The position numbers were made by a program, and so were the translations under genes. A DNA stretch of 18,348 nt from a virus (lineage: Duplodnaviria; Heunggongvirae; Uroviricota; Caudoviricetes): IMG/VR virus record IMGVR_UViG_2636415477_000006, positions 1-18,348 of that record; one strand, 5' to 3'. How positions within the stretch are numbered: the stretch's first letter is position 1; each line of letters opens with the position of its first letter. The notes below the pieces were generated by a model that was given only the letters and a program-made list of their open reading frames with translations, was not told where the DNA came from and did not search any database. Below, one piece after another: positions 1 through 15,825 of this stretch.

Positions 1-70
1 GTGGGTCGACAGAATCCATGCCGACACGTTCAGCCAGCTTCCCTGCCAGCGTTGCGAGTGCTGTACTCAT
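1..70 (-). CDS. bet: Bet (Red-beta) single-strand annealing protein, N-terminal 23 codons only; gene continues beyond window start
   Basis: Reverse complement of 1..70 translates MSTALATLAGKLAERVGMDSVDP, which I recognise as the lambda Bet N-terminus; it sits 5 nt downstream of the gam stop in the same operon. Confidence 0.75.
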   Translation of the reverse strand, partial: MSTALATLAGKLAERVGMDSVDP

Positions 71-75
71 CCGTT

Positions 76-372
76 TTATACCTCTGAATCAATATTAATT
101 TGGTGACGGGCGATGGTTTCAGCCATGTAGCGGATGTGTTCTGCCATGCGTTCCTGAAAATCGACATCGTCATCAAATGCACGGGAAATAGCTTTTTTGC
201 TGGCCCCGTGACGTTGCAGATTATCGATGCATAGCGATTCAAACAGGTGTTGGGGCAGACCTTTTTCCAGGTCGTCTGCCAGCTCAGCTTCAGTTTCTTC
301 ACGGGCAATTTGCTGGTAGTGTCGTGCCCATGACTGCTCTTCAATGCGATCGGGGATAAGCCAGGCATTCAT
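76..372 (-). CDS. gam: Gam host-nuclease (RecBCD) inhibitor, short GamS-length form, 98 aa
   Basis: 98-aa ORF is near-colinear with the lambda GamS sequence as I remember it (…QSWARHYQQ…[13 protein letters not shown]…LQRHGASKK…[12 protein letters not shown]…); start ATG overlaps the stop of the upstream gene (ATGA); lies directly upstream of bet. Confidence 0.85.
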
Positions 373-2441: not shown

Positions 2442-2517
2442 TGTATTTAAACCTCTGGCTGGATTAGAATTAGCGGCCCTTTGTCTGATTTCTCCGAATA
2501 CGGTGACGCAGGGAGAA

Positions 2518-2550
2518 ATCCGGTAGCCTGCGCTGCCGGATTTTTATTTC
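2518..2550. terminator. Hairpin with T-run on plus strand and U-rich tail on minus strand; likely terminator after the 128-aa moron gene
   Basis: ATCCGG…CCGGAT outer stem with inner GC-rich pairing, followed by TTTTTATTT on plus strand; on minus strand it lies immediately after the stop at 2549. Confidence 0.4.
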
Positions 2551-2935
2551 AGTGGAAGGTTGCCTGGTTTGCTGTTTTGTGAGTTGTTTTTCCCTTTTCG
2601 TGCTGGCATTCAGGGCAGTCGCACTCGGAATTTTCTCTTGCAAACTCAAGAGCCTGCGCCAGTGTATGGATTTGTTGTACTCCAATGTTGCTTCTGACGA
2701 CTTCACGTGCAGCATGAATATATGGGCTTGGTGTTTTGCCATTTAACCCACATAAAACAAAACGACTGTCCTTATATTCGTTATTTCCAACTTCTGTAAG
2801 CACTGAAAAAGAAAATACAAAGTCGATTTTGTATTCTTTGCATATTTTACTGATGCGTTCTGCAATTTCTTTGAGTTCATTTATTGCATCAGGACTGGTT
2901 TCGGAAAATATTTCATTTTGCGCAAGTTCTTTCAT
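2549..2935 (-). CDS. Hypothetical 128-aa protein with C-terminal Cys cluster (ECDCPECQHEKGK); AT-rich moron-like gene
   Basis: ORF in a locally AT-rich segment (about 2750..2950); weak SD (GGAAAAA) upstream of the ATG; followed by hairpin at 2518..2550. Confidence 0.5.
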   Translation of the reverse strand: MKELAQNEIFSETSPDAINELKEIAERISKICKEYKIDFVFSFSVLTEVGNNEYKDSRFVLCGLNGKTPSPYIHAAREVVRSNIGVQQIHTLAQALEFARENSECDCPECQHEKGKTTHKTANQATFH

Positions 2936-3018
2936 TTTGATTTTTCCGTGATTGATAATTAATGCGGTTTTATTTCGGCTTGTCTGTTACAGATATGGAA
3001 GGTGTATTTTATTACTCG

Positions 3019-3240
3019 TCACAACGACGCTGCTTTTACGGGTAAGCCATCGCGCCCGATGAAAACTTTAATCATGCAGTCGGTAATGCATGTTTTTGTT
3101 GTGAAGTTACGAATATAGAGTTTTCTCTTTTCAATATTGTTTGCTGAAGCGATATATGTCCGACCTTCATGAAGAACATAATCGCCAGGCGTCACGCACT
3201 GACGTGGTATTTCATCAGTTCCGAAGTGATGAGCAATCAT
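3019..3240 (-). CDS. kilR: KilR-like small killing protein (Rac prophage FtsZ inhibitor family), 73 aa
   Basis: Start at the internal ATG at 3240 has a GGAGA SD 6 nt upstream; the product [35 protein letters not shown]…[13 protein letters not shown] matches my memory of Rac KilR in sequence and length. Confidence 0.6.
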
Positions 3241-3696
3241 AATTATCTCCATTTTCACAAATGAACTTTGTTGATGCGGTGCCTGGTGCCTCCAGGTGAC
3301 GTTAACCAGTTAACAACTAACGCCGGGTCAGGGGACGATGACTTTCCGTGACATCCTGTCGGTTTAACTGTTCCGCGTGCGCATAGCCGCATTCACCGCA
3401 TCACAAAATTCACTTTAAAAAGGGCGGACATCAGCAATCGGCAAACCGATATCCGCCAAGGGTTACACACAGCAATGTTGTTATTCACAACCGGAAGCGC
3501 ACGGTCGAAGAAATCTAACGACAATCCTTCTATGGGAAAGAGTCTTCGCCTCGCGCTTTCGTGTAGTACCCTGGCTTTCAGGGTAATGTCTGTTCAGTAA
3601 ACTGAGAGTGCAGGAACTCACCCGTGTCCGGCGCACGATCTCCACCTCACCCGTGGAGAACTCCTCAACTACAAACCCCGTAAGGAGAGTGAATTT

Positions 3697-3906
3697 ATGA
3701 CACAAGAAGAAAAAGTGATGTTTCTGATGCGGCTGGCTGTCGATACTTACAACACACAATTTACGGAGAAAGATATACCTCAAAAGGCAGTTCCTGCCGC
3801 GGTAGATAAGGGCGGTGCTATTGCCGTATTTTACGATGCATTTGAATCATTTTTTAATGAAAAACTCGACGCTGTTAGCGACTTCGGAACATCGAGTAAT
3901 AAATAA
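3697..3906 (+). CDS. Hypothetical 69-aa protein, plus strand, antisense to the leftward operon
   Basis: Strong SD AAGGAGAG 6-7 nt upstream of the ATG; acidic helical-looking product; 3' end overlaps the convergent ORF 3875..4234 by 32 nt. Confidence 0.45.
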   Translation: MTQEEKVMFLMRLAVDTYNTQFTEKDIPQKAVPAAVDKGGAIAVFYDAFESFFNEKLDAVSDFGTSSNK

Positions 3907-4234
3907 CGTTCATTACGGTTCTTAAACAACAATCAGTGGGCTTGATGTTGTTCTTTTCAAGCTCACTTGCCATCACTTCCATTATTCTTGCACTTACACG
4001 AATTATTTGGTGGCTGTAAGCGACGCAACTGTCGCTGATATTGCTGTTTATTTCTATTACTTCATTTTCACTGGCGGCGCTAAATTTGGATATGCCGTTT
4101 CCATTGTCCTGTTTCAGTGCTGTTTCCGCTATCCGGATGCGTTCCTGCGTTGCGGAATTTGGGCTAAGTCGATAAACCTGTCTGGCATCTTCCAGAAGCA
4201 GGGCGATAATGTGCTTCAGTTCTGTTTCATTCAT
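3875..4234 (-). CDS. Hypothetical protein, about 119 aa (start chosen at MNETELK)
   Basis: ORF with GGAG 7 nt upstream of the ATG at 4234; no recognisable motifs. Confidence 0.4.
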   Translation of the reverse strand: MNETELKHIIALLLEDARQVYRLSPNSATQERIRIAETALKQDNGNGISKFSAASENEVIEINSNISDSCVAYSHQIIRVSARIMEVMASELEKNNIKPTDCCLRTVMNVIYYSMFRSR

Positions 4235-4371
4235 AGTTAACTCCGGTAGTTGCAATTTATTAATATCAGGCGGTCAGCTCTTTAAGCTTCTGAACTGCTT
4301 TATTCATTTCATCCATACAGTCGATGAATTCGTCCAGTTTAAGCTGCATTTTTCCGGCGGCCTGAAGAATT

Positions 4372-4656
4372 TCAAGTTTTAAGGGCGCAAGTTTTTTGTT
4401 GTAATCGACGCAGGTTATTAACTCGCGGCCAGTAATATTTTGGCTTGGCACGAGATCCGGGTCTTGAACCTACACAAACTATATAGCTCTCTTCTTTCCT
4501 CGGAAGGCCAGGTGCATCTAGCAGACGGCCTAGTTCGAATTTTTTTACGTTGACACCAGGAGGAATCACCTCGACGATAAACCCGATTTTTACCTTCGTT
4601 ACACCGTTTGATGAGCTTGACCATTTAACTTCATCGTTCAATTTGAACTTCATCAT
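4372..4656 (-). CDS. Hypothetical 94-aa protein; possible frameshifted gene continuing in another frame to 4266
   Basis: GAGG SD 5 nt upstream of ATGATG at 4656; ORF ends just after an A6 run (minus strand, about 4387..4392), where the overlapping 4266..4451 frame continues with a GTG-initiated ORF lacking an SD. Confidence 0.45.
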   Translation of the reverse strand: MMKFKLNDEVKWSSSSNGVTKVKIGFIVEVIPPGVNVKKFELGRLLDAPGLPRKEESYIVCVGSRPGSRAKPKYYWPRVNNLRRLQQKTCALKT

Positions 4657-4661
4657 TAACC

Positions 4662-4967
4662 TCAATCGTAATAAGCCGGAATTGATTTTCCGCGTTGTTT
4701 CTGGCGGCCTGAGCAAGTCACACCCATTTCACTGCGTGGTTTGCGGTAGTAAATACGGTTCTGTTTACTCTCGACTTCTTCTGCCTTCTTGCAGCGAAGG
4801 CTTCCGAGTGATACTGCTTTGTCTGCTCCGACGCAACCAGAGATCTTTAGCGCAATCTTCCGTGTCAGTCTTTCACTACTGCGTCGCTCTGCAATAAGTT
4901 CTTCCCTGCGAGCTTTATAGCGGCTTTTTGCCGTACCTTTGGATTCTTTCCAGATTATGGTTACCAT
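4662..4967 (-). CDS. N: N-like transcription antiterminator (arginine-rich motif near N-terminus), 101 aa
   Basis: AAGGAGA SD 5 nt upstream of the ATG at 4967; N-terminal GTAKSRYKARREELIAERR is an arginine-rich motif resembling P22/lambda N family; first gene downstream of the pL/nutL candidate. Confidence 0.6.
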   Translation of the reverse strand: MVTIIWKESKGTAKSRYKARREELIAERRSSERLTRKIALKISGCVGADKAVSLGSLRCKKAEEVESKQNRIYYRKPRSEMGVTCSGRQKQRGKSIPAYYD

Positions 4968-5078
4968 GATGGTCTCCTTTAAGTGGCTTTGGTGTATGAC
5001 GCGTCGAGGTGTTTTTCTTCTCGATCGCGGCCTTGCAACTGAAATTCGCGTCATCCCCAAAACCACTTAGATTTTGGT

Positions 5079-5118
5079 CTCAACGGTTAGGTTGAGAGTC
5101 CATCAATGTTAAAGAGCC
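5079..5118 (-). promoter_or_regulatory. nutL candidate: boxA (GGCTCTTTAACA) followed 8 nt later by a boxB hairpin (CUCAAC-CUAACC-GUUGAG)
   Basis: Minus-strand reading of 5107..5118 is a near-consensus boxA; inverted repeat at 5079..5096 forms a 6-bp stem with 6-nt loop; lies between the pL candidate and the N-like gene. Confidence 0.5.
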
Positions 5119-5164
5119 GGCCAATCTGTTCCGTTTGGCTTCCAGCGTCCTGCTGTTGAATTGA

Positions 5165-5239
5165 AGATAACCTAAGTTATCTGGTTGTTCAATAACTATA
5201 TTTATCATTTTATGAAAAACGTTATAAATAACTGATAAC
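5165..5239 (-). promoter_or_regulatory. pL/OL candidate: minus-strand promoter TTGAAC-17-TATCTT overlapping operator ATAACctaaGTTAT (5167..5180), with further ATAAC/GTTAT half-sites at 5221..5239
   Basis: -35 (reverse complement of 5187..5192) and -10 (reverse complement of 5165..5170) with 17-bp spacer; same ATAAC-N4-GTTAT dyad as in the cI-cro intergenic region. Confidence 0.45.
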
Positions 5240-5300
5240 AAAAATATTTTATTTTTTGTGGTATCCGCGTGATATTTTCAAGGGGGAAAGGCTGATTGTT

Positions 5301-5522
5301 ATGGGTGATTGCATGTTAATCGAAGGGGAATTTGGTGTGTTGCACCAGCGGGTAGTCGAAATTCTAGGGGTGTCGTTGCTTGAGGTTATTGCTACTGGGG
5401 AAGCTATTTCAGCAGATGCTATTGCGGGAATGATCCGAGTGCTTCACCATGATGAATTGGATGATCTCGCTGTGAAGTTAGCTATAGATGTGTTACTTCA
5501 GGATATGCGACTGTGTAATTAA
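5301..5522 (+). CDS. Hypothetical 73-aa protein on plus strand between OL and cI, convergent with cI
   Basis: ATG at 5301 preceded by AGGGGGAAAGG; only ORF of note on either strand across 5256..5522; AT-rich putative promoter overlapping operator half-sites upstream. The ORF track extends it to a TTG at 5256. Confidence 0.45.
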   Translation: MGDCMLIEGEFGVLHQRVVEILGVSLLEVIATGEAISADAIAGMIRVLHHDELDDLAVKLAIDVLLQDMRLCN

Positions 5523-5523
5523 G

Positions 5524-5552
5524 TAAATAAAACCCGGCACTGGAGCCGGGGG
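5524..5552 (-). terminator. Intrinsic terminator downstream of cI (shared bidirectionally with the convergent plus-strand gene)
   Basis: CCCGGC-actgga-GCCGGG hairpin; on minus strand it is followed by UUUUAUUU; on plus strand by a weaker T tail. Confidence 0.55.
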
Positions 5553-5674
5553 ATTTAGAAATGGCATTTTATGAATTGGCTACTTGGCGAATGGTTTACC
5601 ATCGGTGGTATTGAGCACAATAAAAGGCCGTTCTTCGTGAGTGTTCTTATAGCAAAAGTTCAGTTGGAGTCTGA

Positions 5675-6382
5675 TTACCAGCTATGTGATGACCAGAACA
5701 CTCGCCCTATGATTCTTACGTTTTTGTAGAATTCTTCTCTGTTCATTACTTCATCAGGATACTCTTCGCGGTTTATCGATCTGATAATTACCGATGTTGG
5801 CGTGGCTATGAGCGTTTTTACCCTTAACAAATCAGCTTGGCAAATTGCATATGTTTTACCATCCCTGATGCTCGTATCTTGCGTGTTTACCCCCACCACA
5901 TCACCATCATGGAGTGTTGGCTCCATGCTTTGCCCAACAACCCTGACCAACTTTGCCGCTTTTTCTGGAACTCCCATTTTTTTCAGGTAATAGCGCCTAA
6001 AAACTAGAGAGAATTCTGCGGACTCCTCCAATGCACAACTTCCTCCGCCAGCTGAAAGTGAAATATTTAGAAGGGGGAGCGCAACAAATTCGTCATTATC
6101 ATTTTGATGATCATCCCAGGCGATAGCTTTTAAAGATGATTCCCGAGCATTAGATGGCTCTTCTGCGCTCTGTGGTCTCATTGACCCTATACCAGAGCTT
6201 AGCCATTCAGGGCGAACTCTTAACGCGTTGGCTAATTCGACCATTTTACGTGATCCGGTTGTTTTACCAGATGACATCTTTTGTATGGCTGGTTGTGATA
6301 CCCCCACCATGTCTGCAAGTTGTGCTTGTGACAACCCGGCTGAACTCATGGCGGCATTTAGTCTTTCTGCGAATGTTTTCAT
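5675..6382 (-). CDS. cI: CI-type prophage repressor: N-terminal XRE-family HTH plus C-terminal S24 (LexA-like) autopeptidase domain, 235 aa
   Basis: N-terminal …LSQAQLADMVGVSQPAIQKM… HTH; Ala-Gly-type cleavage region (LSAGGG); GQSMEPT serine motif; divergent from cro across an operator-rich intergenic region. Confidence 0.9.
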   Translation of the reverse strand: MKTFAERLNAAMSSAGLSQAQLADMVGVSQPAIQKMSSGKTTGSRKMVELANALRVRPEWLSSGIGSMRPQSAEEPSNARESSLKAIAWDDHQNDNDEFVALPLLNISLSAGGGSCALEESAEFSLVFRRYYLKKMGVPEKAAKLVRVVGQSMEPTLHDGDVVGVNTQDTSIRDGKTYAICQADLLRVKTLIATPTSVIIRSINREEYPDEVMNREEFYKNVRIIGRVFWSSHSW

Positions 6383-6492
6383 ACCTGTAATCTATAACCA
6401 CGGTTATCAAAAGTAAAACAACAATTGTTATTGCCCTGGTGTATAACTCATGTTATTTTTGGTTATGCTTTATTTGCTGTAGAGGTATGCTC
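6383..6492. promoter_or_regulatory. OR/pRM/pR candidate region: three dyad operators (ATAACcacgGTTAT 6394..6407; AACAATTGTT-centred site about 6417..6431; ATAACtcatGTTAT 6444..6457)
   Basis: Repeated ATAAC/GTTAT half-sites spaced about 24-26 bp centre to centre; plausible minus-strand pRM TTGTTT-18-TTATAG ending just before the leaderless-like cI ATG; the plus-strand pR is not pinned down. Confidence 0.5.
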
Positions 6493-6717
6493 ATGAATTT
6501 AGTGATTCAGCGAGCCTTGAATATTGTTGGCAGTCAAAAACGACTTGCAGCTGATTGCGGCGTATCACAGCCCGCTGTTCATAAATGGTTGCGAGGCGGA
6601 AAAGTTTCTCCTGAAAAAGTTTTCGCTATCGTTAATGCCACCAATGGTCAGGTTAAGGCTTACGAAATTCGCCCGGACTTACCGCACCTGTTTCCTCATC
6701 CGAACCAGGCTGAATAA
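6493..6717 (+). CDS. cro: Cro-like HTH regulator, 74 aa
   Basis: GAGG SD 7 nt upstream of the ATG at 6493; product has a …LAADCGVSQPAVHKW… HTH; divergent from cI. Confidence 0.8.
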   Translation: MNLVIQRALNIVGSQKRLAADCGVSQPAVHKWLRGGKVSPEKVFAIVNATNGQVKAYEIRPDLPHLFPHPNQAE

Positions 6718-6724
6718 GTAACAC

Positions 6725-6765
6725 CGCTCTTTAACATTGCTGGTCGTTCACCTCTAACAGGGTGA
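6725..6765 (+). promoter_or_regulatory. nutR candidate: boxA CGCTCTTTAACA (6725..6736) plus boxB-like hairpin UCACC-ucuaacag-GGUGA (6748..6765)
   Basis: Exact boxA consensus 8 nt after the cro stop; hairpin loop shares CUAAC with the nutL boxB loop. Confidence 0.5.
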
Positions 6766-6833
6766 GCAAACATCAGTGGCAAACCCATTGGGGATTGCCG
6801 CTTAACCCCATATCAATATAGGAAAATTAACAA

Positions 6834-7130
6834 ATGTCACAAACAAGTTACAGCAAACTGTCACAGCGCGATATCGATCGCGCTGAAACGGATTTACTTA
6901 TCAACCTGTCAGCTCTGACGCAAAGGGGACTGGCGAAGATGATTGGCTGCCATGAATCGAAGGTCAGTCGTACCGACTGGCGATACATCGCGGCGATTTT
7001 ATGCGCGTTTCAGATGGCATCTGATATCAGTCCGATCAGCCGGGCTTTCCAGCATGCCATTAACGTTCATGCAAATAAAAAACGTCCGGTTGGGGCCGGA
7101 CGTTCTGAGCAAATCCTGATGAATATCTGA
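6834..7130 (+). CDS. cII: CII-like transcriptional activator, 98 aa
   Basis: AGGA SD; C-terminal …NKKRPVGAGRSEQILMNI resembles the lambda CII C-terminus (…NKKRPAATERSEQIQMEF) from memory; position immediately after cro/nutR. Confidence 0.8.
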   Translation: MSQTSYSKLSQRDIDRAETDLLINLSALTQRGLAKMIGCHESKVSRTDWRYIAAILCAFQMASDISPISRAFQHAINVHANKKRPVGAGRSEQILMNI

Positions 7131-7193
7131 TATTCAGGCAGGGCATGGAGCAATACACGGGAATAATTCTGCCACATCTGGAAGAATTTCGCC

Positions 7194-7350
7194 AGCAACA
7201 ACACCAACCGCAGCAGCCTGAAGCCGATTGGGTTAACCCGGAGATACCGGGACCGTCTGTGAAGATGTGCAGTCACACCAATGTGCAGTCACACCAACCG
7301 CAGCAGCCTGAAGCCGATTGGGTTAACCCGGGAGATACCGGGACCGTCTG
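7194..7350. repeat. Two direct copies of a ~60-bp dyad-rich element (7194..7259 and 7284..7350) separated by a perfect 16-bp tandem duplication (ATGTGCAGTCACACCA x2, 7265..7296)
   Basis: Direct sequence comparison: GCAACAAC(A/G)CCAACCGCAGCAGCCTGAAGCCGATTGGGTTAACCCGG(G)AGATACCGGGACCGTCTG; contains the palindrome GGGTTAACCC and CCCGG/CCGGG inverted arms. Confidence 0.85.
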
Positions 7351-7383
7351 CGGTATGGAGTAAATCTTGTATGCGAGGGGACT

Positions 7384-8460
7384 ATGCGTAATTACGCAAC
7401 AATTTCACCTCAGTTCTGGTTAGGCGAAACAGGGAGAAAACTAAGGAAGTCTGGTCCGGAATGTATGGTAGTGGCGTTGTATATGATGACCTCGCCTCAT
7501 TCCAATATGCTGGGCCTTTATTACCTGCCTGTTTTGTACATTGCTCACGAAACCGGACTTGATCCTGAAGGGGCTTCTAAGGGGCTTCAAATGGCTTGCG
7601 AGGCTGGTTTTTGCAGCTATGACCATGATTCTGAGGTTGTATGGGTGCATGAAATGGCAGCATGGCAGGTTGGTGAATCGCTGAAACCTGGCGATAACCG
7701 TTGTGCTGGGGTAAGAAATGAATATTCCGCGTTGCTGGAAAATCCTTTTTTATCATCCTTTTATGATAGATATAAGGATGATTTCCACCTGGATGTCAGA
7801 CGTGAATCATGTCGGAAAATTGAAGCCCCTTCAGAGCCCCTTTCAAGCCAAGAACAGGAACAAGAACAGGAAAGGGATAAAACCCTTCTGGTCCATGGCG
7901 AAAAAATCGCCACGGACCCGCAGGGGGATTTTTGTCCTGTTCTGACTGAACGTCCAGGACCAGCTGGCACGACACCGGAAGCAGATTCCGGGCGTTGTGT
8001 GCAGCAGGTGCTGATCGTCGAACCGGAGCAACAACGCCAACCGCAGCAGCCTGAAGCCGATTCCGCGATGAGCGGGAAGCCGATTGGGTTAACCCGGGCG
8101 ATGCCGGGACCGTCTGCGGGACGAGTTGATTATCCTGACGTGTTCGAACGGGTCTGGCGTGAATATCCGCATCGGGCAGGGTCAAACCCGAAGAAATCCG
8201 CGTTCAATGCCTGGAGGGCCAGATTACGCGAAGGGGTGTCACCGGATGTCGTGCTGGATGGCGTGAGGCGTTACGCAAGATACCTGGAGGCTACCGGGAA
8301 AGCGGGAACTGAATTTGTTCAGCAGGCATCGACGTTTTTTGGCCCGAACAGGAATTTCGAAAATCCGTGGTCGCTGCCGAAGGCTGGCGCAGTCAGCCTG
8401 CGTTGCGTGAATCACATTTCTGAACCGGACACCGAAATTCCGCCGGGTTTCAGGGGGTAA
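7384..8460 (+). CDS. Putative phage replication initiation protein (O-like/primosomal type), 358 aa, containing a third copy of the upstream repeat
   Basis: Precedes a DnaC-like loader with a 6-nt gap; central acidic SQEQEQEQE linker; position equivalent to lambda O; family assignment by context only. Confidence 0.7.
   Translation: MRNYATISPQFWLGETGRKLRKSGPECMVVALYMMTSPHSNMLGLYYLPVLYIAHETGLDPEGASKGLQMACEAGFCSYDHDSEVVWVHEMAAWQVGESLKPGDNRCAGVRNEYSALLENPFLSSFYDRYKDDFHLDVRRESCRKIEAPSEPLSSQEQEQEQERDKTLLVHGEKIATDPQGDFCPVLTERPGPAGTTPEADSGRCVQQVLIVEPEQQRQPQQPEADSAMSGKPIGLTRAMPGPSAGRVDYPDVFERVWREYPHRAGSNPKKSAFNAWRARLREGVSPDVVLDGVRRYARYLEATGKAGTEFVQQASTFFGPNRNFENPWSLPKAGAVSLRCVNHISEPDTEIPPGFRG
8027..8118. 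repeat. Third copy of the ~60-bp element, inside the replication gene, carrying a 23-bp internal insertion
   Basis: GAGCAACAACGCCAACCGCAGCAGCCTGAAGCCGATT … GGGTTAACCCGGGCGATGCCGGGACCGTCTGCGG matches copies at 7194..7350. Confidence 0.8.
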
Positions 8461-8466
8461 TCAGCC

Positions 8467-9207
8467 ATGAAAAACATTTCGACAGGAGGGATTCTTGAAC
8501 GGGTGCGCCGTCTGGCACCACCGCACGTGGCAGCACCGTTCCGGACGACCGACGAATGGCGGGAATGGCAACTGGCTGAGGGCCGTAAGCGCAGCGAGGA
8601 AATTAACCGCCTGAATCATCAGGCGCGGGTTGAAAAAATCCTGAACCGTTCGGGCATCCAGCCGCTTCACAGGAAGTGCTCATTCGGGAACTACCGGGTG
8701 CAGAACGACGGTCAGCGCCATGCTCTGAGTCAGGCAAAATCCATCGCGGCAGAGCTGCATACCGGCTGCACGAATTTCGTGTTCAGCGGTAAACCTGGCA
8801 CCGGGAAAAATCACCTTGCAGCAGCGATTGGCAACTGGCTAATGGCGAAGGGGAGAAGCGTGATTATCGTCACCGTGTCCGATGTCATGAGTGTGTTGCA
8901 TGACGGCTACGACAACGGCAAGTCCGGGGAAAAATTTTTACAGGAGCTTTGTGGAGTTGACCTTCTGGTCCTTGACGAAATTGGCATCCAGCGTGAGACG
9001 AAAAACGAGCAGGTGGTACTGCACCAGATTGTTGACCGCCGGACGGCATCACTGCGCAGTGTCGGGATGCTGACAAACCTGAATCATGCCGCAATGAGCA
9101 CGCTTCTTGGTGAGAGGATTATGGACCGGATGACCATGAACGGTGGTCGTTGGGTGAATTTTAACTGGGAGAGCTGGCGGTCAAACGTTGGACGTCAGGG
9201 TATGTGA
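8467..9207 (+). CDS. DnaC/IstB-like AAA+ helicase loader (phage replication protein), 246 aa
   Basis: Walker A GKPGTGKNHLA and Walker B LLVLDEIG; follows the initiator gene. Confidence 0.85.
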   Translation: MKNISTGGILERVRRLAPPHVAAPFRTTDEWREWQLAEGRKRSEEINRLNHQARVEKILNRSGIQPLHRKCSFGNYRVQNDGQRHALSQAKSIAAELHTGCTNFVFSGKPGTGKNHLAAAIGNWLMAKGRSVIIVTVSDVMSVLHDGYDNGKSGEKFLQELCGVDLLVLDEIGIQRETKNEQVVLHQIVDRRTASLRSVGMLTNLNHAAMSTLLGERIMDRMTMNGGRWVNFNWESWRSNVGRQGM

Positions 9208-9232
9208 GAATTTTTGACGAGGTAAATTTTCG

Positions 9233-10003
9233 ATGGAAACCGTATTGCATGCACTGAAAGCGATGGGAAAAGCCAATTCTGTTGAACTGGCGGCGCGGCT
9301 TGATATCAGCCGTGAAGAAGTTCTCAACGAACTGTGGGAACTCAAAAAAAATGGCGTTGTTGATAAAACGGGTCACACCTGGTTTCTGGCTGTCGAAGGT
9401 GAATCCCAGGTAACCGAAGAGCGGCCAGTAAAATCTGAAACACAGGATATGCTGACCGAAGAGGTCGCTCCAAAAGTTAGCGCTGACATGATGATTGAGT
9501 TTATCTCTCAGGAGGGGGCTAAAACCTGTGAAGAAATAGCGGGTAAGTTCGGAGTTACCACTCGCAAGGTTGCTTCCACGCTGGCGGTGGTAACCGCAAC
9601 GGGGCGGCTGGCACGCGTTAATCAGAACGGTAAATTTCGTTACTGCATGCCGGGGGGTAATTTACCAGCAGATCCGAAAACCGCGCCGGTAACGGAAAAT
9701 GATGGTAAGGCCTTTCCTCAGCCAGCAGGTGCTGCGTTACCAGTCCGGGAAGCCGCAACACAGGAAGAAATTAAAACAGAAACTGTGGCGGACATTGTGC
9801 AGTCGTTGCCATCGTTTACCGAAACGCAAGCAGATGAGCTGATTTTTCCGTCCCTGCGCAGGGCAAACCTGGCGCTGCGCAGGGCGAAAAGTGATGTTCA
9901 GAAGTGGGAGCGAGTCTGCGCCGCGCTGCGGGAGCTGAATAAACACCGGGATATTTTCAGTTCGATTGCTGATATTCCGGTTCATTCACCGACAACAAAG
10001 TGA
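9233..10003 (+). CDS. Hypothetical 256-aa protein with N-terminal winged-helix-like domains
   Basis: GAGG about 10 nt upstream of the ATG; N-terminal …ANSVELAARLDISREEVLNELWELKKNGVV… and a second …GAKTCEEIAGKFGVTTRKVASTLAV… HTH-like segment. Confidence 0.55.
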   Translation: METVLHALKAMGKANSVELAARLDISREEVLNELWELKKNGVVDKTGHTWFLAVEGESQVTEERPVKSETQDMLTEEVAPKVSADMMIEFISQEGAKTCEEIAGKFGVTTRKVASTLAVVTATGRLARVNQNGKFRYCMPGGNLPADPKTAPVTENDGKAFPQPAGAALPVREAATQEEIKTETVADIVQSLPSFTETQADELIFPSLRRANLALRRAKSDVQKWERVCAALRELNKHRDIFSSIADIPVHSPTTK

Positions 10004-10018
10004 TCTCCGGAGGTGCTT

Positions 10019-10450
10019 ATGACAAGAGCATTTACACCAGAAGAGCGGGAAAAAATTAAGGGGCTGATCGTGGAATTCGTACGCCTTAACGGACGAGGCA
10101 CGATTCGGCAGTTATCGGATGAAATTGGTGTCAGTCATGCGTCTGTCGGTCGTTTATGCATGGAGCTGGCCGCCAGTGGTGATGTTTACAATTCCGGTTA
10201 CGGAGTATTCCCGTCTGAACAGGCTCGTAAGGACTGGCAAAATGCCCGCAAAAAACTCTCAAGGGCAAAGTCGAAGAAACCGGTTGTCGTTGATCCAGAC
10301 CTTATCCGGGCATTACCAGATGGGGAAATACGGCGCTACGACAGACGCTACAACACAATTTGTCGCGAGTGCCGTAACAGCGAAACGATGCAGCGTGTGC
10401 TGGCATTCTGGCGAGGGAGTGCAGAGGGATTGATGTTCTCCCCGTCGTGA
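10019..10450 (+). CDS. Hypothetical HTH protein, about 143 aa
   Basis: GGAGGTG SD upstream of the ATG at 10019; HTH-like …GTIRQLSDEIGVSHASVGRL…; basic C-terminal half. Confidence 0.5.
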   Translation: MTRAFTPEEREKIKGLIVEFVRLNGRGTIRQLSDEIGVSHASVGRLCMELAASGDVYNSGYGVFPSEQARKDWQNARKKLSRAKSKKPVVVDPDLIRALPDGEIRRYDRRYNTICRECRNSETMQRVLAFWRGSAEGLMFSPS

Positions 10451-10482
10451 ATGACGGGGGCTTACGTGTTCAGAAAAGTGAT

Positions 10483-11157
10483 TCATATAGAGGCTGAATC
10501 TGATCTTTTTTGTTCACGTCTGGCTTCCACCATTGCAGGCAGAGTGAAGGCGTAGACTAAAAACATTTCGGTAAAACTCAGGATCTGGCTTGCCTCAATT
10601 GGTGTGAAAACTTCATCTGTATGAACTGCTTTATTGGCATCAATTCGTACAATATGAGCCCATTCCTTCATCTGTTCAGTGATCAGGCCTTTTTTGTAAA
10701 TCATCTGAATACGTTGCGACAGCGATTCTTTTCCTGCTTCATCGCCGAGCAGTTTTTTCGTGGAGATATCGAGGACTCTGCGACAAAGAATAACCACTGT
10801 GTCGTACCGCCTCCTCTGTAAATCCTCTTTTGCCTCAACAAAAGTACGGTCTGCAACCGGGGGCGTATATTCTGGTGCGGTAATTTTTTTGACCACAGGA
10901 TAGATCTTGCGGAAACGGTACTGGCTATTTCCTGAAATCAGAATATCGAGGTCTTTTTTCTGGCTTTCCGCCATGGGACCGTGATAGTGGTCTGATGGGA
11001 TTTCAACAATAGCAACACCTCCTCGATGACAACTTCTGCATACAAAAGCGACGTTAAAAAAAGGTGTTTTTTCAATTTGTTTTTCGGCAAATGCCTCAAT
11101 AACAGCTCGCTCTTTTAAACAGTGCGGGCATGTGATATCAAAGGAGACTAAACCCAT
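10483..11157 (-). CDS. Zinc-ribbon (CPHC…CRSC) protein with C-terminal alpha-helical domain bearing an R-x3-N-x3-H motif (HEPN/DUF4145-like); candidate abortive-infection/defence effector, 224 aa
   Basis: Start at MGLVSFD has GAGGAA SD 5 nt upstream; N-terminal CxxC-x21-CxxC; C-terminal …EWAHIVRIDANKAVHTDE…; start codon overlaps the divergent plus-strand gene within CCATGG. Confidence 0.55.
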   Translation of the reverse strand: MGLVSFDITCPHCLKERAVIEAFAEKQIEKTPFFNVAFVCRSCHRGGVAIVEIPSDHYHGPMAESQKKDLDILISGNSQYRFRKIYPVVKKITAPEYTPPVADRTFVEAKEDLQRRRYDTVVILCRRVLDISTKKLLGDEAGKESLSQRIQMIYKKGLITEQMKEWAHIVRIDANKAVHTDEVFTPIEASQILSFTEMFLVYAFTLPAMVEARREQKRSDSASI

Positions 11158-11401
11158 GGATATTCCTCGCGAAATTAAAGAAATTAACGAAATCATTGAG
11201 GTTACTGATCGCCCCGAGTTTACCCTCATGCGTCGTTATGAAACAGGAACCGACGAACAAAAATACATCATGGTTGCAGCATTGGCTGTGATGGCGATAG
11301 AAAGGGAGCGAAGGGAAAAGGACGTAATGGTTATTCCTGAGAGAAATGATTCACCGGATTTGAGATGGCAGGAGCCGGAGTGGGATGTGGTAATCCGGTG
11401 A
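11156..11401 (+). CDS. Hypothetical acidic 81-aa protein, divergent from and start-overlapping the zinc-ribbon/HEPN-like gene
   Basis: AAGGAGA SD 7 nt upstream of the ATG at 11156; charged helical product. Confidence 0.4.
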   Translation: MDIPREIKEINEIIEVTDRPEFTLMRRYETGTDEQKYIMVAALAVMAIERERREKDVMVIPERNDSPDLRWQEPEWDVVIR

Positions 11402-11455
11402 TTGATATTTCTCTGGGGTAAAGCGCCGCCAGAATGACGGCGCGGTAGTGGAGAG

Positions 11456-11764
11456 TTAAACGAAGCGGATCTGGAGTTTTTTCCCTGTAGCACGGGCGAA
11501 TTTTTTCAGTGTGGCAAATGATGGGCCGCTTGTACCTGATGCAAGATTGCTTTCCATTCTGGTTATCGCAGTCGCTTTTGTTCCCATACGTTCAGCAACT
11601 TCAGCCTGGGTTAAGCCAGCTTCTTTTCGTGCTGCCAGCATTTCATCAAGTAGTGCGAATTCATCGGCGATGGCGTCGTATTCTGCTTTTACTGCGGGGT
11701 TAGACAACATTTTTTCTACCATTTCATCGTGTGTCATGGTAGGTGGGGTACGTTTACCAGTCAT
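11456..11764 (-). CDS. higA: HigA-like antitoxin (XRE-family HTH), 102 aa
   Basis: C-terminal HTH …LTQAEVAERMGTKATAITRME…; start overlaps the end of the upstream toxin gene by 11 nt; toxin-first order typical of hig modules. Confidence 0.7.
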   Translation of the reverse strand: MTGKRTPPTMTHDEMVEKMLSNPAVKAEYDAIADEFALLDEMLAARKEAGLTQAEVAERMGTKATAITRMESNLASGTSGPSFATLKKFARATGKKLQIRFV

Positions 11765-12095
11765 GCTTAACCTCCTTCATTCTGGTTTCAGCTTTTCTAA
11801 GCTCGGCAGGTGGAGTTTTTTGCGTTTTCTTTACAAAGCTATGCAACATAATGATTCGCTTTCCTTTTAGCGTGCAGTAAAAAACACGCCCTATGCCTTC
11901 CGAGCCCTTAAGGCGGATTTCAAACAAACCGTCGCCAAATGCCTCTGTATGCGGGGAACCAAGATTAGCTCCGTAAATACGCATTTTCTCCGTGTACCGA
12001 ATGTACCGGGCTTGTAAGGTCTCAGGAAGAGAAAGGATCTCAGCTTCAACCTCGTCACTGTAGTATTCGATAATGTAGTTTATGAGAGTAAACAT
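11754..12095 (-). CDS. higB: HigB/Gp49-like toxin of the RelE/ParE superfamily, about 113 aa
   Basis: Product …FGDGLFEIRLKGSEGIGRVFYCTLKGKRIIMLHSFVKKTQKTP… fits the Gp49/HigB-type pattern; paired with an HTH antitoxin; start set at MFTLINY, downstream of a TTGTCG-17-TATATA minus-strand promoter. Confidence 0.7.
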   Translation of the reverse strand: MFTLINYIIEYYSDEVEAEILSLPETLQARYIRYTEKMRIYGANLGSPHTEAFGDGLFEIRLKGSEGIGRVFYCTLKGKRIIMLHSFVKKTQKTPPAELRKAETRMKEVKHDW

Positions 12096-12109
12096 AACAA
12101 ATTTGTTAT
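12094..12109. promoter_or_regulatory. Perfect 16-bp palindrome ATAACAAATTTGTTAT overlapping the higB start codon and -10 region; candidate HigA operator
   Basis: Sequence is its own reverse complement; located at the higBA promoter. Confidence 0.45.
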
Positions 12110-12125
12110 ATACATTCAAGGTATG

Positions 12126-12241
12126 TTGACGACAACACATATCCGGGATTATATTCTTCGCACGCCAGCAAAATCTGGCGTCGGGATTAGGAACCCCGGA
12201 TAGAAACCGCGACAGAGACACGCCGCGAGCGTGTTTTTTAT
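12126..12241 (+). ncRNA. Candidate small RNA or terminated leader: promoter TTGACG-17-TTATAT (12126..12154), about 80-nt transcript with hairpin CGCCAGcaaaatCTGGCG and intrinsic terminator (12218..12241)
   Basis: Near-consensus -35/-10 with 17-bp spacer; two hairpins; terminator ACACGC-cgcga-GCGTGT followed by TTTTTTATT; no ORF is involved. Confidence 0.35.
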
Positions 12242-12402
12242 TGTCGTATGCACACGCACATCTGAATTATGGTGGGGCGTATAGGGGAGCTGAAAAGCTC
12301 GCCGGTTGGTTTCCCGGTAGTTCCTAACCCTGTACGTCTCGCCACCCGATGATTAGGAACCTGACGGTGGTGATAGTTTAGAAACCACTCGAGGGCGTCA
12401 TT

Positions 12403-13074
12403 ATGACAACTCAAGTTTCTGTTGAAACACTCTCCACGATTACTTACAAGCAGATCCCCGTTATCACTACCGAACTTTTGGCGCACCTTTACGGCACAGA
12501 AGCTATTCGTATTCGCCAGAATCACCACGAAAACAAAGGTCGTTTCATTGAGGAAAAACACTTCTTCAAACTTGAAGGTGAAACTTTACGTGAGTTCAAG
12601 CACAGAGTAGCTTTTAACTACTCTGTGAAAATTGCCCGTAACGTTCGCTCCCTCATCCTATGGACAGAACGCGGCGCAGCCCGTCATGCAAAAATGCTCG
12701 AAACCGATCGGGCGTGGGAAGTGTTCGAAAAACTGGAAGACTGCTATTTCAGCCAGGGAAAAACAACACAAACCGAACAGCAGTCGCAGATTCAGCCACA
12801 ATTCACAGCCGAGGAAATCATCCTCCTTTGCTACATGCAACTCTGGATGGAAAAAGCCCAGGACCTTAGCAAGCAGCTGTACCCCATAATGAAAGAGCTG
12901 AACTCCTCATACACGAACAAGCTGTATGACATTGCGTTTGAGACTATCTACATGGTGACGAAGAACAGAGACGCGCTACTAAGGGAGGTAACACGTCTCG
13001 ACATGTCAAGTTCCGTTATCCAGCGGGCCATGCCAATGCTGAAAAGCCTGCGGGCAAGACAATTTGAATTCTGA
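12403..13074 (+). CDS. ORF6N/KilA-N-type domain protein (antirepressor-like), 223 aa
   Basis: N-terminal …ITYKQIPVITTELLAHLYGTEAIRIRQNHHENKGRFIEEKHFFKL… fits the ORF6N pattern from memory; GAGGG upstream of the ATG. Confidence 0.65.
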   Translation: MTTQVSVETLSTITYKQIPVITTELLAHLYGTEAIRIRQNHHENKGRFIEEKHFFKLEGETLREFKHRVAFNYSVKIARNVRSLILWTERGAARHAKMLETDRAWEVFEKLEDCYFSQGKTTQTEQQSQIQPQFTAEEIILLCYMQLWMEKAQDLSKQLYPIMKELNSSYTNKLYDIAFETIYMVTKNRDALLREVTRLDMSSSVIQRAMPMLKSLRARQFEF

Positions 13075-13128
13075 AACTAAAGGAGCTTCGGCTCCTTTTT
13101 TGTTGGGAAAATCCAGTGAGAGGGAATA

Positions 13129-13539
13129 ATGAACCAGACTATCTTCCTCCGAAGTAAGCAGCAGCAACAATTCGCCATTAACGCCATCCTTGCAACAACT
13201 CTCGATAAAGACAAACCCGTTACGATCCGTATCACCGATTACAAGCGTAATCTCGCTCAAAATGCAAAATTTCACGCGATGGTCGCTGATATATCCCGCC
13301 AGGTTAAGTGGTGCGGCAGGTGGCTAAAACCAGAACAGTGGAAAGTTTTGTTAATCAGCGGTCATGCCGTGGCGACAAAACAGGAAGCTGATGTTTTGCC
13401 AGGTCTTGAAGGTGAATACGTCAATATCCGCGAAAGCAGTGCGCAAATGAGCGTGAAGCGTATGGCAAGCCTGATTGAGTACACAACATCCTGGGCCGTG
13501 GATCAGGGTGTCAGATTTACCGACAGGAGGTACGAATGA
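13129..13539 (+). CDS. ninB: NinB (Orf-family recombination mediator), 136 aa
   Basis: Resembles lambda NinB from memory (…[33 protein letters not shown]…); nin-region position; overlaps the next gene (ATGA). Confidence 0.8.
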
Positions 13540-13727
13540 GACGACAGCGACGAAGCATCACCGATATCGTCTGTGAAAACTGCAATTACCTTCCAACCAA
13601 ACGCTCCCGAAATAAACCCAGGCCAGTCCCCAAAGAATCTGATGTTAAAACCTTCAACTATACGGCTCACCTGTGGGATATCCGGTGGCTAAGGCGTCGA
13701 GCAAGATTTAATTGTCACTCCGGATAG
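13536..13727 (+). CDS. ninE: NinE-like protein, 63 aa
   Basis: [27 protein letters not shown]…[22 protein letters not shown] closely resembles lambda NinE from memory. Confidence 0.75.
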
Positions 13728-13747
13728 CCTACTGCATGAGGAATAAG

Positions 13748-14041
13748 ATGATGACAAACCTACGCAAAGAAGCGCGCGGCAGAGAATGCCAGGTACGGAT
13801 TTATGGCGTATGCAATGGCAACCCTGAAACTACAGTTCTGGCGCATTACCGAATGGCTGGAATTTGCGGAACGGGAACAAAGCCAGATGATCTGTTGGCT
13901 GCATGGGCCTGTAGTGACTGCCATAATGAAATCGATCGCCGTACTCGCATTCTCGACAACAACGACGCCAGACTTTACCACCTGGAAGGCGTGATCAGGA
14001 CGCTGGCGATATTGCTGAAGGAGGGGAAGATTAAGTCATGA
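13748..14041 (+). CDS. DUF1364/YbcO-like phage protein (putative nuclease), about 97 aa
   Basis: GAGGAA SD 4 nt upstream of ATGATG at 13748; Cys-rich …CQVRIYGVCNG…CSDCHNEID…; located just upstream of rusA as in DLP12-type nin regions. Confidence 0.6.
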   Translation: MMTNLRKEARGRECQVRIYGVCNGNPETTVLAHYRMAGICGTGTKPDDLLAAWACSDCHNEIDRRTRILDNNDARLYHLEGVIRTLAILLKEGKIKS

Positions 14042-14400
14042 ATGAATATGAGTTTGTGCTTCCCTGGCCGCCGACGGTGAATACCTACTGGCGAAGACGG
14101 GGAAGCCAGTACTACATCAGCGATAAAGGCCAGAAATACCGAAAAGACGTACAGCAAATCATCCGGCAACTCAGATTAGACATTTTCACTAAATCACGAC
14201 TTCGCATCACAATTATTGCTGAACCACCAGATTCCCGCCGTCGCGACCTCGATAACATCCTGAAAGGTTTACTCGACTCTCTTATCCACGCCGGATTTGC
14301 GGAAGACGACGTGCAATTCGATGACATTCGCGTAATTCGCGGCGTGAAAGTGCTTGGCGGTAGAGTGGGGATAAAAATCACCGAACTGGAGAACATATGA
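14038..14400 (+). CDS. rusA: RusA Holliday-junction resolvase, 120 aa
   Basis: MNEYEFVLPWPPTVNTYWRRRG… with conserved acidic residues (…DLDNILKGLLDSL…DDVQFDDIRV…); overlaps neighbours by 4 nt. Confidence 0.85.
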   Translation: MNEYEFVLPWPPTVNTYWRRRGSQYYISDKGQKYRKDVQQIIRQLRLDIFTKSRLRITIIAEPPDSRRRDLDNILKGLLDSLIHAGFAEDDVQFDDIRVIRGVKVLGGRVGIKITELENI

Positions 14401-14597
14401 ACGCCACAATTCAAACAATACCGGAATTGCTTATCCAGGCACGAGGCAATATGACTGAAGTTTCACGAAAACTGAACTGTAATCGTGCTACGGTCAGAAA
14501 ATATGTCGGTGATAAAGAAGGCAAACGGCACGCCGTCGTCAACGGTGTCCTTATGGTTCACCGTGGATGGGATAAGGGGAAAGCTACTGATGCGTGA
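14397..14597 (+). CDS. ninH: NinH-like protein, 66 aa
   Basis: …[52 protein letters not shown]… resembles lambda NinH from memory. Confidence 0.75.
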
Positions 14598-14970
14598 TAT
14601 TCAGCAGGTGCTTGAACGCTGGGGTGCATGGGTGGCAAATAATCATGAGGATGTGAGCTGGTCGCCCATTGCTGCCGGATTTAAGGGGCTGATCCCCGAA
14701 AAAGTAAAATCACGTCCACAGTGCTGTGATGATGACGCGATGATTATATGCGGGTGTATGGCCCGCCTTAACAGAAACAACAGTGATTTGCATGAGTTGC
14801 TGGTTGATTGCTACGTGCGGGGGATGACGTTTATGTCACTGGCGCGAAAACATGAATGCTCTGATGGGACTATCGGAAAGCGGCTGCAAAAAGCTGAAGG
14901 TGTTATTGAAGGAATGCTGATGATGCTGGATGTTCGGCTGGAGATGGACAGATATGTGCAGCGCCTGTGA
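14590..14970 (+). CDS. Q: Late-gene antiterminator Q (short Q family, phage 82/21-like size), 126 aa
   Basis: Start ATG at 14590 overlaps the ninH stop; Cys-rich …[16 protein letters not shown]…; position after ninH and before a terminator-rich region. The ORF track's longer 14485 start is rejected. Confidence 0.7.
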
Positions 14971-15104
14971 TAGCAGGCGCTTGTCGTTCACTATGTGAAG
15001 TATGTCAATTTGTGAACGTTATGCTATTTACTTTACAGGACAAGGACGTAAGAGTTATCTACCGTTTAACCGCAGAGATACAACAACAATGAACAGGGGG
15101 CAAA

Positions 15105-15698
15105 ATGGACATTGAAGATTTTCTGGAGGCGGAAGACAATGATCTGTCTCTGTGGAGTGATGATATTTTAAGCATTGACTGGTTCGTTATCCTCAAAGAG
15201 CTTTTGAAATACCAGAACAGGTTAAAGTTAAACTATTCAGAATTACTTCTGCTGGCTAATTTTGTTTCATTTCACCAGGACGTAGATTCGCAAACATTAC
15301 CATCAATATCTCTTTTTGCCACCAGAATGCGTACATCCCGGGACGCCATACAAGGAGTCCTGGTGTGTCTGGAGGAGAAAGATATGTTACAGAAGATAAG
15401 TTACGCGCAAATCGATCATGACGATGATTTGCGAAACATCTATGATATCAAGCCATTAATCCGCCGGTTAATTTGGTTATTGAAAAGTGGTTGTGATAAA
15501 AAGCATACTTGCCCCCTCTGCGGGAAAGTCGCTATATCTAATGAGGAAATTGAGAAAAAATTCGGATTCAGAATTTGTGGGAATAAGAAAAGGCCGCAAA
15601 GCTGGTGTCGTTCATGCAGAAGCCCCAAACAACGCCGACTGAATACATTGTTATGTGGTAAAAAAAGAGCTCGAAAATCCTCGCCCGAGGTGGTGTAA
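15105..15698 (+). CDS. Hypothetical 197-aa moron: N-terminal winged-helix-like region, C-terminal Cys4 zinc ribbon (CPLCG…CRSCR) and basic tail
   Basis: Low-GC ORF immediately downstream of Q; purine-rich stretch before the ATG; followed by strong terminator at 15826..15849. Confidence 0.65.
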   Translation: MDIEDFLEAEDNDLSLWSDDILSIDWFVILKELLKYQNRLKLNYSELLLLANFVSFHQDVDSQTLPSISLFATRMRTSRDAIQGVLVCLEEKDMLQKISYAQIDHDDDLRNIYDIKPLIRRLIWLLKSGCDKKHTCPLCGKVAISNEEIEKKFGFRICGNKKRPQSWCRSCRSPKQRRLNTLLCGKKRARKSSPEVV

Positions 15699-15825
15699 AG
15701 CGTCGTAGAACCCCGGTCCTCTTGTTTGATTCCATACCTGAATAAAGTGGGATGCCAAAAAAGTATTTTACGTACGTAAAAATCTGCATATCATGATAAG
15801 AGTGGTTACATTGCCACGCAGCCGA

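Follow-up and report, generated by a model that had tools for sequence, protein, structure and literature searches.

The window analysed here, a stretch of 18,348 nt that constitutes positions 1 to 18,348 of the viral record IMGVR_UViG_2636415477_000006 (Caudoviricetes), is part of a lambdoid prophage. Within it, a pair of divergent genes with overlapping start codons was characterized: a large minus-strand gene (224 aa), whose product resembles the anti-phage protein RAZR (ring-activated zinc-finger RNase), and a small plus-strand gene (81 aa). The region was 100% identical to Escherichia phage PhiR5_2 (PV340546.1), for which a literature search found no paper, and 98% identical to the Shigella Stx phages 75/02 and POCJ13. 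An early-right operon of the lambdoid type occupies the plus strand, with cro, cII, O, a DnaC-like gene, DUF1627, DUF977 ('LygF/Ren-like'), an antirepressor, NinB, RusA and NinH. Two minus-strand blocks oppose this operon, the large gene (10483-11157) and a higBA-type pair (11456-~12083), and the small open reading frame (ORF) lies between them (11156-11401). The features of the two genes are the following:

10483..11157, minus strand: RAZR-like large gene, 224 aa, with an N-terminal Cys4 zinc ribbon, a linker and a predicted C-terminal DUF4145/HEPN RNase domain; ATG at 11157..11155.
10993..11157, minus strand: zinc-ribbon domain, residues ~1-55, delimited from the invariant Cys and the predicted beta strands.
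11128-11130 (C10), 11119-11121 (C13), 11038-11040 (C40) and 11029-11031 (C43), minus strand: Cys codons of the zinc ribbon.
10492..10860, minus strand: HEPN (DUF4145) helical domain, residues ~100-222.
10621..10647, minus strand: predicted catalytic motif R171-I-D-A-N175-K-A-V-H179 (R-x3-N-x3-H), from conservation and the alignment with RAZR.
11156..11401, plus strand: small partner gene, 81 aa, phrog_8371 family, from the ORF, the phrog_8371 match and the homologues.
11156-11326, plus strand: conserved three-helix core of the small protein, residues 1-57.
11155..11158, no strand assigned: palindromic CATG common to both divergent start codons, with a 2-nt overlap, read from the sequence.
11141..11146, plus strand: Shine-Dalgarno (SD) motif AAGGAG of the small gene, inside large-gene codons 4-6 (V-S-F), 9 nt before the plus-strand ATG.
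11163..11168, minus strand: SD motif GAGGAA of the large gene, inside small-gene codons 3-5 (I-P-R), 5 nt before the minus-strand ATG.

Both ORFs were present where the original prediction for this locus had placed them. The CCATGG that they were said to share was located at 11154-11159, the two ATG codons having bases 11156-11157 in common, and direct reading confirmed that each SD motif is inside the first codons of the other gene.

The large protein matched the Pfam family DUF4145 (E 3.9e-9, residues 118-197), which has been assigned to the HEPN superfamily with zinc-ribbon fusions already listed (Anantharaman et al., PMC3710099). In the AlphaFold2 model (pLDDT 87.5) a beta ribbon, with strands at residues 4-6, 20-27, 33-40 and 46-52, is followed by a helical domain, and the predicted structure has the all-alpha fold of HEPN proteins. 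Weak profile matches of the zinc ribbon were obtained with zinc ribbons of the RPB9/TFIIS type and with RAZR residues 14-54. Residues C10, C13, C40, C43, R171, D173, N175 and H179 were invariant in 27 full-length homologues, down to 37% identity; in an alignment of 114 sequences, down to ~25% identity, the Cys residues, R171, N175 and H179 were invariant or at least 90% conserved (C10, C13 and C43 invariant, C40 at least 90% conserved). M1 was likewise invariant in the 27 homologues, so the start of the 224-aa protein is correct and the upstream ATG at 11229 is not the start. A profile search of 1.8 billion representatives retrieved 3,366 relatives, and nearly all of the best 150 of these had ~205-235 aa and matched end to end. 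The spacing of the motif, R-x7-H (RIDANKAVH), is not the canonical Rx4-6H of HEPN domains and equals that of the R146/H154 pair of RAZR. The original prediction had read this protein as a zinc ribbon joined to a HEPN/DUF4145-like domain, to be abandoned if no HEPN-like fold was predicted or if the R, N and H residues were not conserved; with the Pfam match, the invariant Cys4, the predicted HEPN fold and the conservation given above, this reading stands. In RefSeq and PHROG the large gene is labelled 'DNA binding protein'.

RAZR of E. coli (formerly PD-T7-4; PDB 9y9c) consists of a Cys4 zinc ribbon and a DUF4145/HEPN RNase domain, and forms a 24-mer that is built around ring-shaped proteins of the phage (Zhang et al., Nature 2026, PMC13017515). 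It is inert and non-toxic until triggered by a phage protein, cleaves single-stranded RNA non-specifically and aborts infection; the R146A and H154A mutants abolish defence, and specificity is set by the zinc finger (PMC13017515). Chain 9y9c_OA was the best PDB sequence match of the large-protein family profile (E 4.7e-7). The zinc-ribbon segment and the linker plus HEPN segment were collinear with this chain, with CPHC...CxSC on RAZR residues 14-54, and R171/N175/H179 aligned residue for residue with RAZR R146/N150/H154. The window protein has in common with RAZR a length of ~220 aa, an N-terminal Cys4 zinc ribbon (CPHC...CxxC), a Pro-rich linker and a C-terminal DUF4145/HEPN domain with the Arg and His of the catalytic pair, and the zinc finger is the most variable part in both families (for RAZR, PMC13017515). 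On the other hand, hhalign against a RAZR-type protein from IMG/VR gave 96% probability over the HEPN region only, with 23% identity, and the similarity of the zinc finger to that of RAZR was marginal (7.9 bits). The PADLOC model of PD-T7-4 (PDLC04109) matched the window protein with E 0.0022 over residues 85-183 only (45% coverage), not over most of its length, which leaves it below that model; 63 of the 114 family members were matched at E ≤ 0.01 (best E 1.8e-11). RAZR is also a single-gene system, and the RAZR-type loci L124-L126 were without a divergent overlapping ORF, whereas the window clade has a conserved partner (40 of 67 lineages, see below). As judged by sequence comparison, the large protein is a remote, unannotated relative of RAZR and not an orthologue. 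Identity with DefensePredictor DS-38, a validated zinc-finger and HEPN protein, was considered and rejected, since DS-38 is another protein, WP_001313577.1, with 366 aa; WP_032144013.1, the protein of the window, was not found in the DefensePredictor tables searched.

The small protein matched phrog_8371 (E 6.8e-56), which carries no assigned function in PHROG; other members matched it with E-values of 1.6e-13 (Yersinia), 1.9e-9 (consensus-type) and 0.0016 (Paraburkholderia). AlphaFold2 predicted three helices (residues 3-16, 20-30 and 33-57, pLDDT >90), and the acidic tail was specific to E. coli. Fold and profile comparison of the small protein detected no known relatives, no nucleotidyltransferase domain and no known antitoxin fold; helix-turn-helix (HTH) features were not seen in the predicted structure, helix 3 of which is hydrophobic. 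A word-based protein search found homologues in E. coli only (at least 78% identity). At loci of Yersinia and Paraburkholderia, ORFs of 60-73 aa homologous to that of the window (...DRPEF.LMQRYE...DQK...ALIGKLIE.DR...) begin at the ATG on the opposite strand, and the base before the DUF4145 ATG is again C. Members of a 21-protein profile were 20-48% identical to the window protein, with I10, R19, P20, E21 and L24 invariant, and the alignments kept the invariant I10 and the RPE..L motif. This profile retrieved 63 clusters, from Yersinia, Klebsiella (277 contigs), Morganella, Photorhabdus, Xenorhabdus, Citrobacter, Enterobacter, Kluyvera, Paraburkholderia and Zoogloeaceae, all annotated 'hypothetical' and none with a Pfam domain. 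The entropy per codon position was 0.93/0.74/1.38 bits, and the small ORF is protein-coding; pN/pS among the E. coli copies was 0.36 on 21 sites and thus weakly informative. The 81-aa form was supported by RefSeq and PGAP records and by the homologues. The annotation of PV340546.1 (15377-15550; window ~11228-11401) starts the gene at an internal Met, giving 57 aa, and the 3' end of the ORF was frameshifted in PhiR12_3 and in locus L012.

To survey the pair, 108 loci were gathered from GTDB genomes, IMG/VR and earlier look-ups, among which 67 distinct large proteins, from lineages that are not phylogenetically independent, had enough upstream sequence. A homologous small ORF was present on the opposite strand in 40 of these 67 lineages, which span Enterobacterales and Betaproteobacteria, and was open for at least 54 codons in 38 of the 40. 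The exact 2-nt overlap of the ATG codons (C-ATG-G) was found in 39/40, so the overlap is no chance feature of the window. The two-gene unit of the original prediction, for which a small ORF without conservation would have been fatal, is therefore retained, as the small ORF is conserved together with the large gene far beyond E. coli and with the same overlap. In a neighbour-joining tree, the pair state was found in deep branches (Paraburkholderia, Zoogloeaceae, Photorhabdus) and in most Enterobacterales; the small ORF was lost in one large clade of 212-aa proteins and at a few scattered tips, and the RAZR-type outgroup was without it. Altogether it was absent from 27 of the 67 lineages. Three distant DUF4145 homologues, from Pantoea, Enterobacter and Citrobacter, were lone antisense genes with no small-ORF neighbour. 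Two IMG/VR contigs (L056 and L057) had an intact defence gene for a 218-aa protein next to a truncated or decayed small ORF (32 and 39 codons), which could reflect either a genuine loss of the partner or a sequencing error.

Loci were also examined from the small-protein side. In those from three small-protein clusters the DUF4145 gene was divergent with the 2-nt overlap in every context, and the cassette occupied lysis/terminase, replication/nin and Enc34/DNA polymerase A regions of the prophages. Every non-E. coli locus so examined had an adjacent DUF4145 gene. For the window small protein itself, the large gene was present in 31 of 39 IMG/VR loci, the remaining eight being orphans of one E. 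coli type, and a DNA scan for PEFTLMQRYE gave 13 contigs, all 13 with the large gene. An SD-like motif for the small gene inside the large gene was found in 22/39 pair lineages and in 1/27 solo lineages; the corresponding motif before the large-gene ATG was present in 37/39 pair lineages. The two genes are a widespread mobile prophage cassette and not a peculiarity of the window locus. The notion of the small ORF as a mere passenger of the phage backbone was overturned by the opposite-strand translation in Yersinia and Paraburkholderia and by the 108-locus survey. Identity of the small protein covaried more closely with that of the distal HEPN domain (rho 0.78) than with that of the adjacent zinc finger (rho 0.43); this pattern is compatible with an interaction of the small protein with the HEPN domain and would be explained equally by fast evolution of the zinc finger.

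The orphan small gene was restricted to one E. coli phage lineage, comprising phiSTEC1589-Stx1c and two chromosomes, without a DUF4145 gene. In these loci the homology breaks exactly at the ATG. A plus-strand gene of 166 aa (phrog_25397) and a spacer of ~300 nt replace the defence gene (L004, 3175-3675; L012 and L014), and the small ORF has a new GTG start and five different N-terminal codons.

The orientation of the pair followed a rule. At pair loci, neighbouring phage genes pointed the same way as the small gene on the downstream side in 38 of 40 flanks and on the upstream side in 32 of 40, and the small gene of the window shares the direction of cro-cII-O-DnaC-...-NinB. Reading with the early-right operon, it needs no promoter of its own. 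As the flanking phage genes are antisense to the large gene, a lytic operon transcript inevitably includes the small gene and is antisense to the defence gene; the overlap of the start regions further implies that the mRNAs of the two genes are necessarily complementary over each of the ribosome-binding sites. The original prediction had deduced that each promoter lies within the coding sequence of the partner, forcing antisense or transcriptional-interference coupling. The former is unneeded for the small gene and no promoter was identified for either gene, while a coupling of the two genes by antisense transcription and transcriptional interference is plausible from the arrangement of the sequence.

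In function, the nearest precedent is the Tha/Ith pair of Staphylococcus aureus prophages (80alpha, phiNM2). There, tail proteins of phages trigger the HEPN RNase Tha, and a small protein encoded antisense to it, Ith, acts as its inhibitor, which prevents autoimmunity on induction and helps phages to evade Tha-positive hosts (Rostol et al., Nat Microbiol 2024, PMC11087260). Both systems combine a prophage-borne HEPN RNase with a small protein (~66 aa in Ith) encoded on the opposite strand and overlapping the defence gene, and Tha/Ith matches the orientation logic of the window and its orphan small genes. The pairs are analogous and not homologous: hhalign gave the small protein a probability of 0.1% with Ith-1, and the large protein one of 3.6% with Tha-1. 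The genes tha and ith are convergent with a 64-nt 3' overlap (L127), whereas those of the window are divergent with a 2-nt overlap of the start codons; Tha is in the cI operon, whereas the window cassette is antisense at varied positions of lytic operons; and the inhibitor role is proven for Ith, whereas for the window small protein it is putative.

Self-immunity elements in or beside a prophage defence locus that permit the lytic replication of the own phage are also known from BstA/aba, where aba is a DNA element inside bstA (Owen et al. 2021, PMC8585504), and from TerI/anti-TerI, where TerI targets the terminase (Azulay et al. 2025, bioRxiv 10.1101/2025.02.27.640495); unlike the window pair, these are unrelated in proteins and mechanisms, with no HEPN domain and no overlapping start codons. 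HepS of the Gifsy-1 prophage avoids self-targeting by a non-triggering tail-tip variant (Sargen et al., Nature 2026, PMC13043305). Unlike the window pair, HepS has no zinc ribbon and no partner gene for self-immunity. A further comparison is offered by Dmd of phage T4, a small protein (~60 aa) that directly inhibits the HEPN toxins RnlA and LsoA (LsoA-Dmd structure 5hy3). As a small phage protein inhibiting a HEPN RNase it is a model for the orphan small genes, differing in that it is encoded by the attacking phage and not beside the RNase gene; no relationship of sequence or fold between the small protein and Dmd was detected.

On the best reading, which has its analogy in Tha/Ith, the locus would be a mobile two-gene cassette in which a RAZR-like RNase defence is accompanied by a cognate small inhibitor that confers self-immunity and is switched on in lytic growth; we give this proposal about an even chance. 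The computations establish the fold and motifs of the large protein, its distant homology to RAZR, the long co-inheritance of the pair in a fixed geometry, the rule of orientation and the fact that the small ORF is coding; an RNase activity, a triggering protein, an inhibitory partner and an antisense coupling are inferred, and would act as follows. The zinc ribbon of the large protein would probably recognise a protein of the infecting phage, and the DUF4145/HEPN domain, with R171 and H179, would then probably cleave RNA and abort the infection. The large gene reads against the phage operons, as lysogeny-expressed morons do. On prophage induction, early-right transcription would run antisense through the large gene and produce the small protein, which is proposed to inhibit the RNase, so that own phage assemblies (e.g. 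portal or recombinase) would not trigger the defence. A phage with the small gene only could use its product to evade lysogens carrying the defence.

Several observations weigh against this proposal. The 27 lineages without the small gene and the true RAZR loci, many of them also prophage-borne, indicate that self-immunity is not universally required. Solo large genes were also antisense to the flanking phage genes (21-24 of 27), so the co-orientation of the small gene is a corollary of the divergence and not independent evidence. A consensus scan of the window found no promoter near the pair, and a position weight matrix (PWM) scan over 39 lineages did no better than on shuffled sequence. The overlap is mutationally frozen as long as both genes are kept; its conservation thus proves the maintenance of both and not selection on the overlap, and the lineages counted are, as stated, not independent. 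Finally, the homology to RAZR is weak for the window protein taken alone (the PADLOC match above), and together with the marginal similarity of the zinc finger this means that the trigger may be quite different.

The original prediction envisaged a toxic effector held in check by a partner. A conserved partner was indeed found; effectors of the RAZR class, on the other hand, are activated by a trigger and are not standing toxins. In a classical toxin-antitoxin system the HEPN protein would be intrinsically toxic and the small protein a labile antitoxin in constant production in the lysogen, until infection stopped its synthesis and freed the toxin. We regard this as unlikely. The co-transcribed operon and strict co-occurrence of type II systems were not observed: the genes are divergent and not co-transcribed, and the partner is absent from 27/67 lineages with an intact large gene, truncated in L056 and L057, and absent at RAZR loci, which argues against such a system. 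Additionally, RAZR is non-toxic without its phage trigger (PMC13017515), the PWM scan found no small-gene promoter within the large gene, and the small protein has neither a nucleotidyltransferase domain nor a known antitoxin fold. A small protein that contributes positively to the defence, as co-sensor, adaptor or transcriptional regulator, is quite unlikely. Solo lineages and RAZR work without it (for RAZR, PMC13017515); the small gene persists alone, with a rebuilt start, after replacement of the defence gene, which is hard to reconcile with an accessory subunit; no HTH-like features were seen and helix 3 is hydrophobic; and the orientation favours production in the lytic phase and not in the lysogen.

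It is very doubtful, too, that the small gene is functionally unrelated to its neighbour, the overlap having arisen once and been carried along because it is hard to undo. Such a history would agree with the frozen overlap, with the breakpoints in E. coli phages exactly at the shared ATG, where exchange or replacement of the defence gene leaves the small ORF in place on the backbone, and with the lineages that lost the small gene yet kept the defence gene. It accounts poorly for a pair that moves as a unit among unrelated positions, unrelated prophages and different bacterial orders, for a small gene seen without its neighbour in a single E. coli lineage only, and for an SD motif of the small gene maintained inside the defence gene in pair lineages only. 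That the system is a single RAZR-like gene and the small ORF a non-coding artefact of its promoter or 5' leader has a practically negligible probability. The restriction to E. coli in the word-based search, the weak pN/pS and the frameshifted 3' ends in PhiR12_3 and L012 pointed in that direction; it is rejected by the coding signature of the codon-entropy pattern, and opposed as well by the protein conservation to 20-48% identity with invariant residues, the at least 54 open codons in 38/40 lineages and the confident three-helix prediction.

The question at stake is how a prophage carries a sensor of ring assemblies without being killed by its own portal, and the window locus belongs to a large sister clade of RAZR that is overlooked by defence-finder models. 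If the small protein is the off-switch, a self-immunity logic like that of Tha/Ith evolved independently in Proteobacteria, a natural inhibitor would be available for studying RAZR-type activation, and the free movement of the cassettes between phages would be explained. A phage acquiring such a cassette would gain a defence unable to backfire, and the orphan small genes of some Stx-type phages would be candidate anti-defence genes in phage-phage competition among Shiga-toxin phages. In its fullest form the proposal is that temperate phages of Proteobacteria carry RAZR-like defences with a start-fused three-helix inhibitor induced in the lytic cycle, that free copies of this inhibitor act as anti-RAZR-like proteins, and that the pair is a Gram-negative, non-homologous counterpart of Tha/Ith and the first natural inhibitor family of the RAZR class; this wider claim is tentative, and we hold it to be somewhat more probably wrong than right.

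The surroundings of the cassette comprise the following features:

11456..12083, minus strand: neighbouring higBA-type pair, with an HTH antitoxin gene (11456-11764; Pfam HTH_3 3.6e-11) and a Gp49/HigB-like toxin gene (11754-~12083; Gp49 1.3e-26).
11423..11443, minus strand: hairpin separating higA from the small gene, at the right-hand limit of the conserved block, from fold and conservation.
10440..10459, no strand assigned: hairpin where the DUF977 and RAZR-like genes converge, at the left-hand limit of the cassette, from fold and the start of homology with PhiR12_3.

The higBA neighbour named in the original prediction was recognised in the adjoining HigA-like HTH gene and Gp49/HigB-like toxin gene, both on the minus strand; this pair is context and lies outside the two-gene system. 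Across related phages, this slot (window 11456-12221), on the right of the small gene, was occupied by four different minus-strand toxin-antitoxin pairs (Gp49/HigB with HTH, HigB-like with HigA, RelE/ParE with HTH, and TumE with HVO_A0114), and it is a hotspot of accessory genes. The hairpin at 11423-11443, just past the higA stop on the minus strand, has a 9-bp stem (-19.1 kcal/mol, z -4.8) followed by UUUACCCC, a weak U tract. It was kept in every E. coli variant irrespective of the toxin-antitoxin pair beyond; it marks a mosaic boundary and probably serves as a weak terminator of the higBA transcript. The hairpin at 10440-10459 takes in the stop codon of DUF977 (-14.5 to -16.5 kcal/mol, z -2.3 to -2.75); the homology with PhiR12_3, where the cassette is in a different context, starts at 10462. 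Both hairpins contain the string GAATGACGG, so the two-gene cassette is bracketed by similar stem-loops.

Other observations concern relatives of the large gene. An E. coli allele (loci L005/L006, protein P0002) was 71% identical to the window large protein, with the divergence confined to the part coding for the zinc finger and the linker, while the flanks and the small gene were 96-100% identical; this intragenic mosaic fits a specificity determined by the zinc finger. In the chromosome of E. coli S1-CAM-02-A, the DUF4145 gene gave matches in three separate places, 55% being covered in one piece, beside an intact small gene, which suggests that the DUF4145 gene is disrupted, e.g. by an insertion. 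The P2-like Escherichia phage Cartapus (L129) encodes a 26%-identical DUF4145 protein (162-860) between cos and the portal gene, which is the known location of the P2 defence hotspot. In Klebsiella prophages L116 and L119 (277/286-570), a gene with the Acb2/Tad1 hairpin domain (PF24729), a family of anti-CBASS and anti-Thoeris sponges, was found ~1.3 kb from the cassette, so that defence and counter-defence genes are close together in these prophages.

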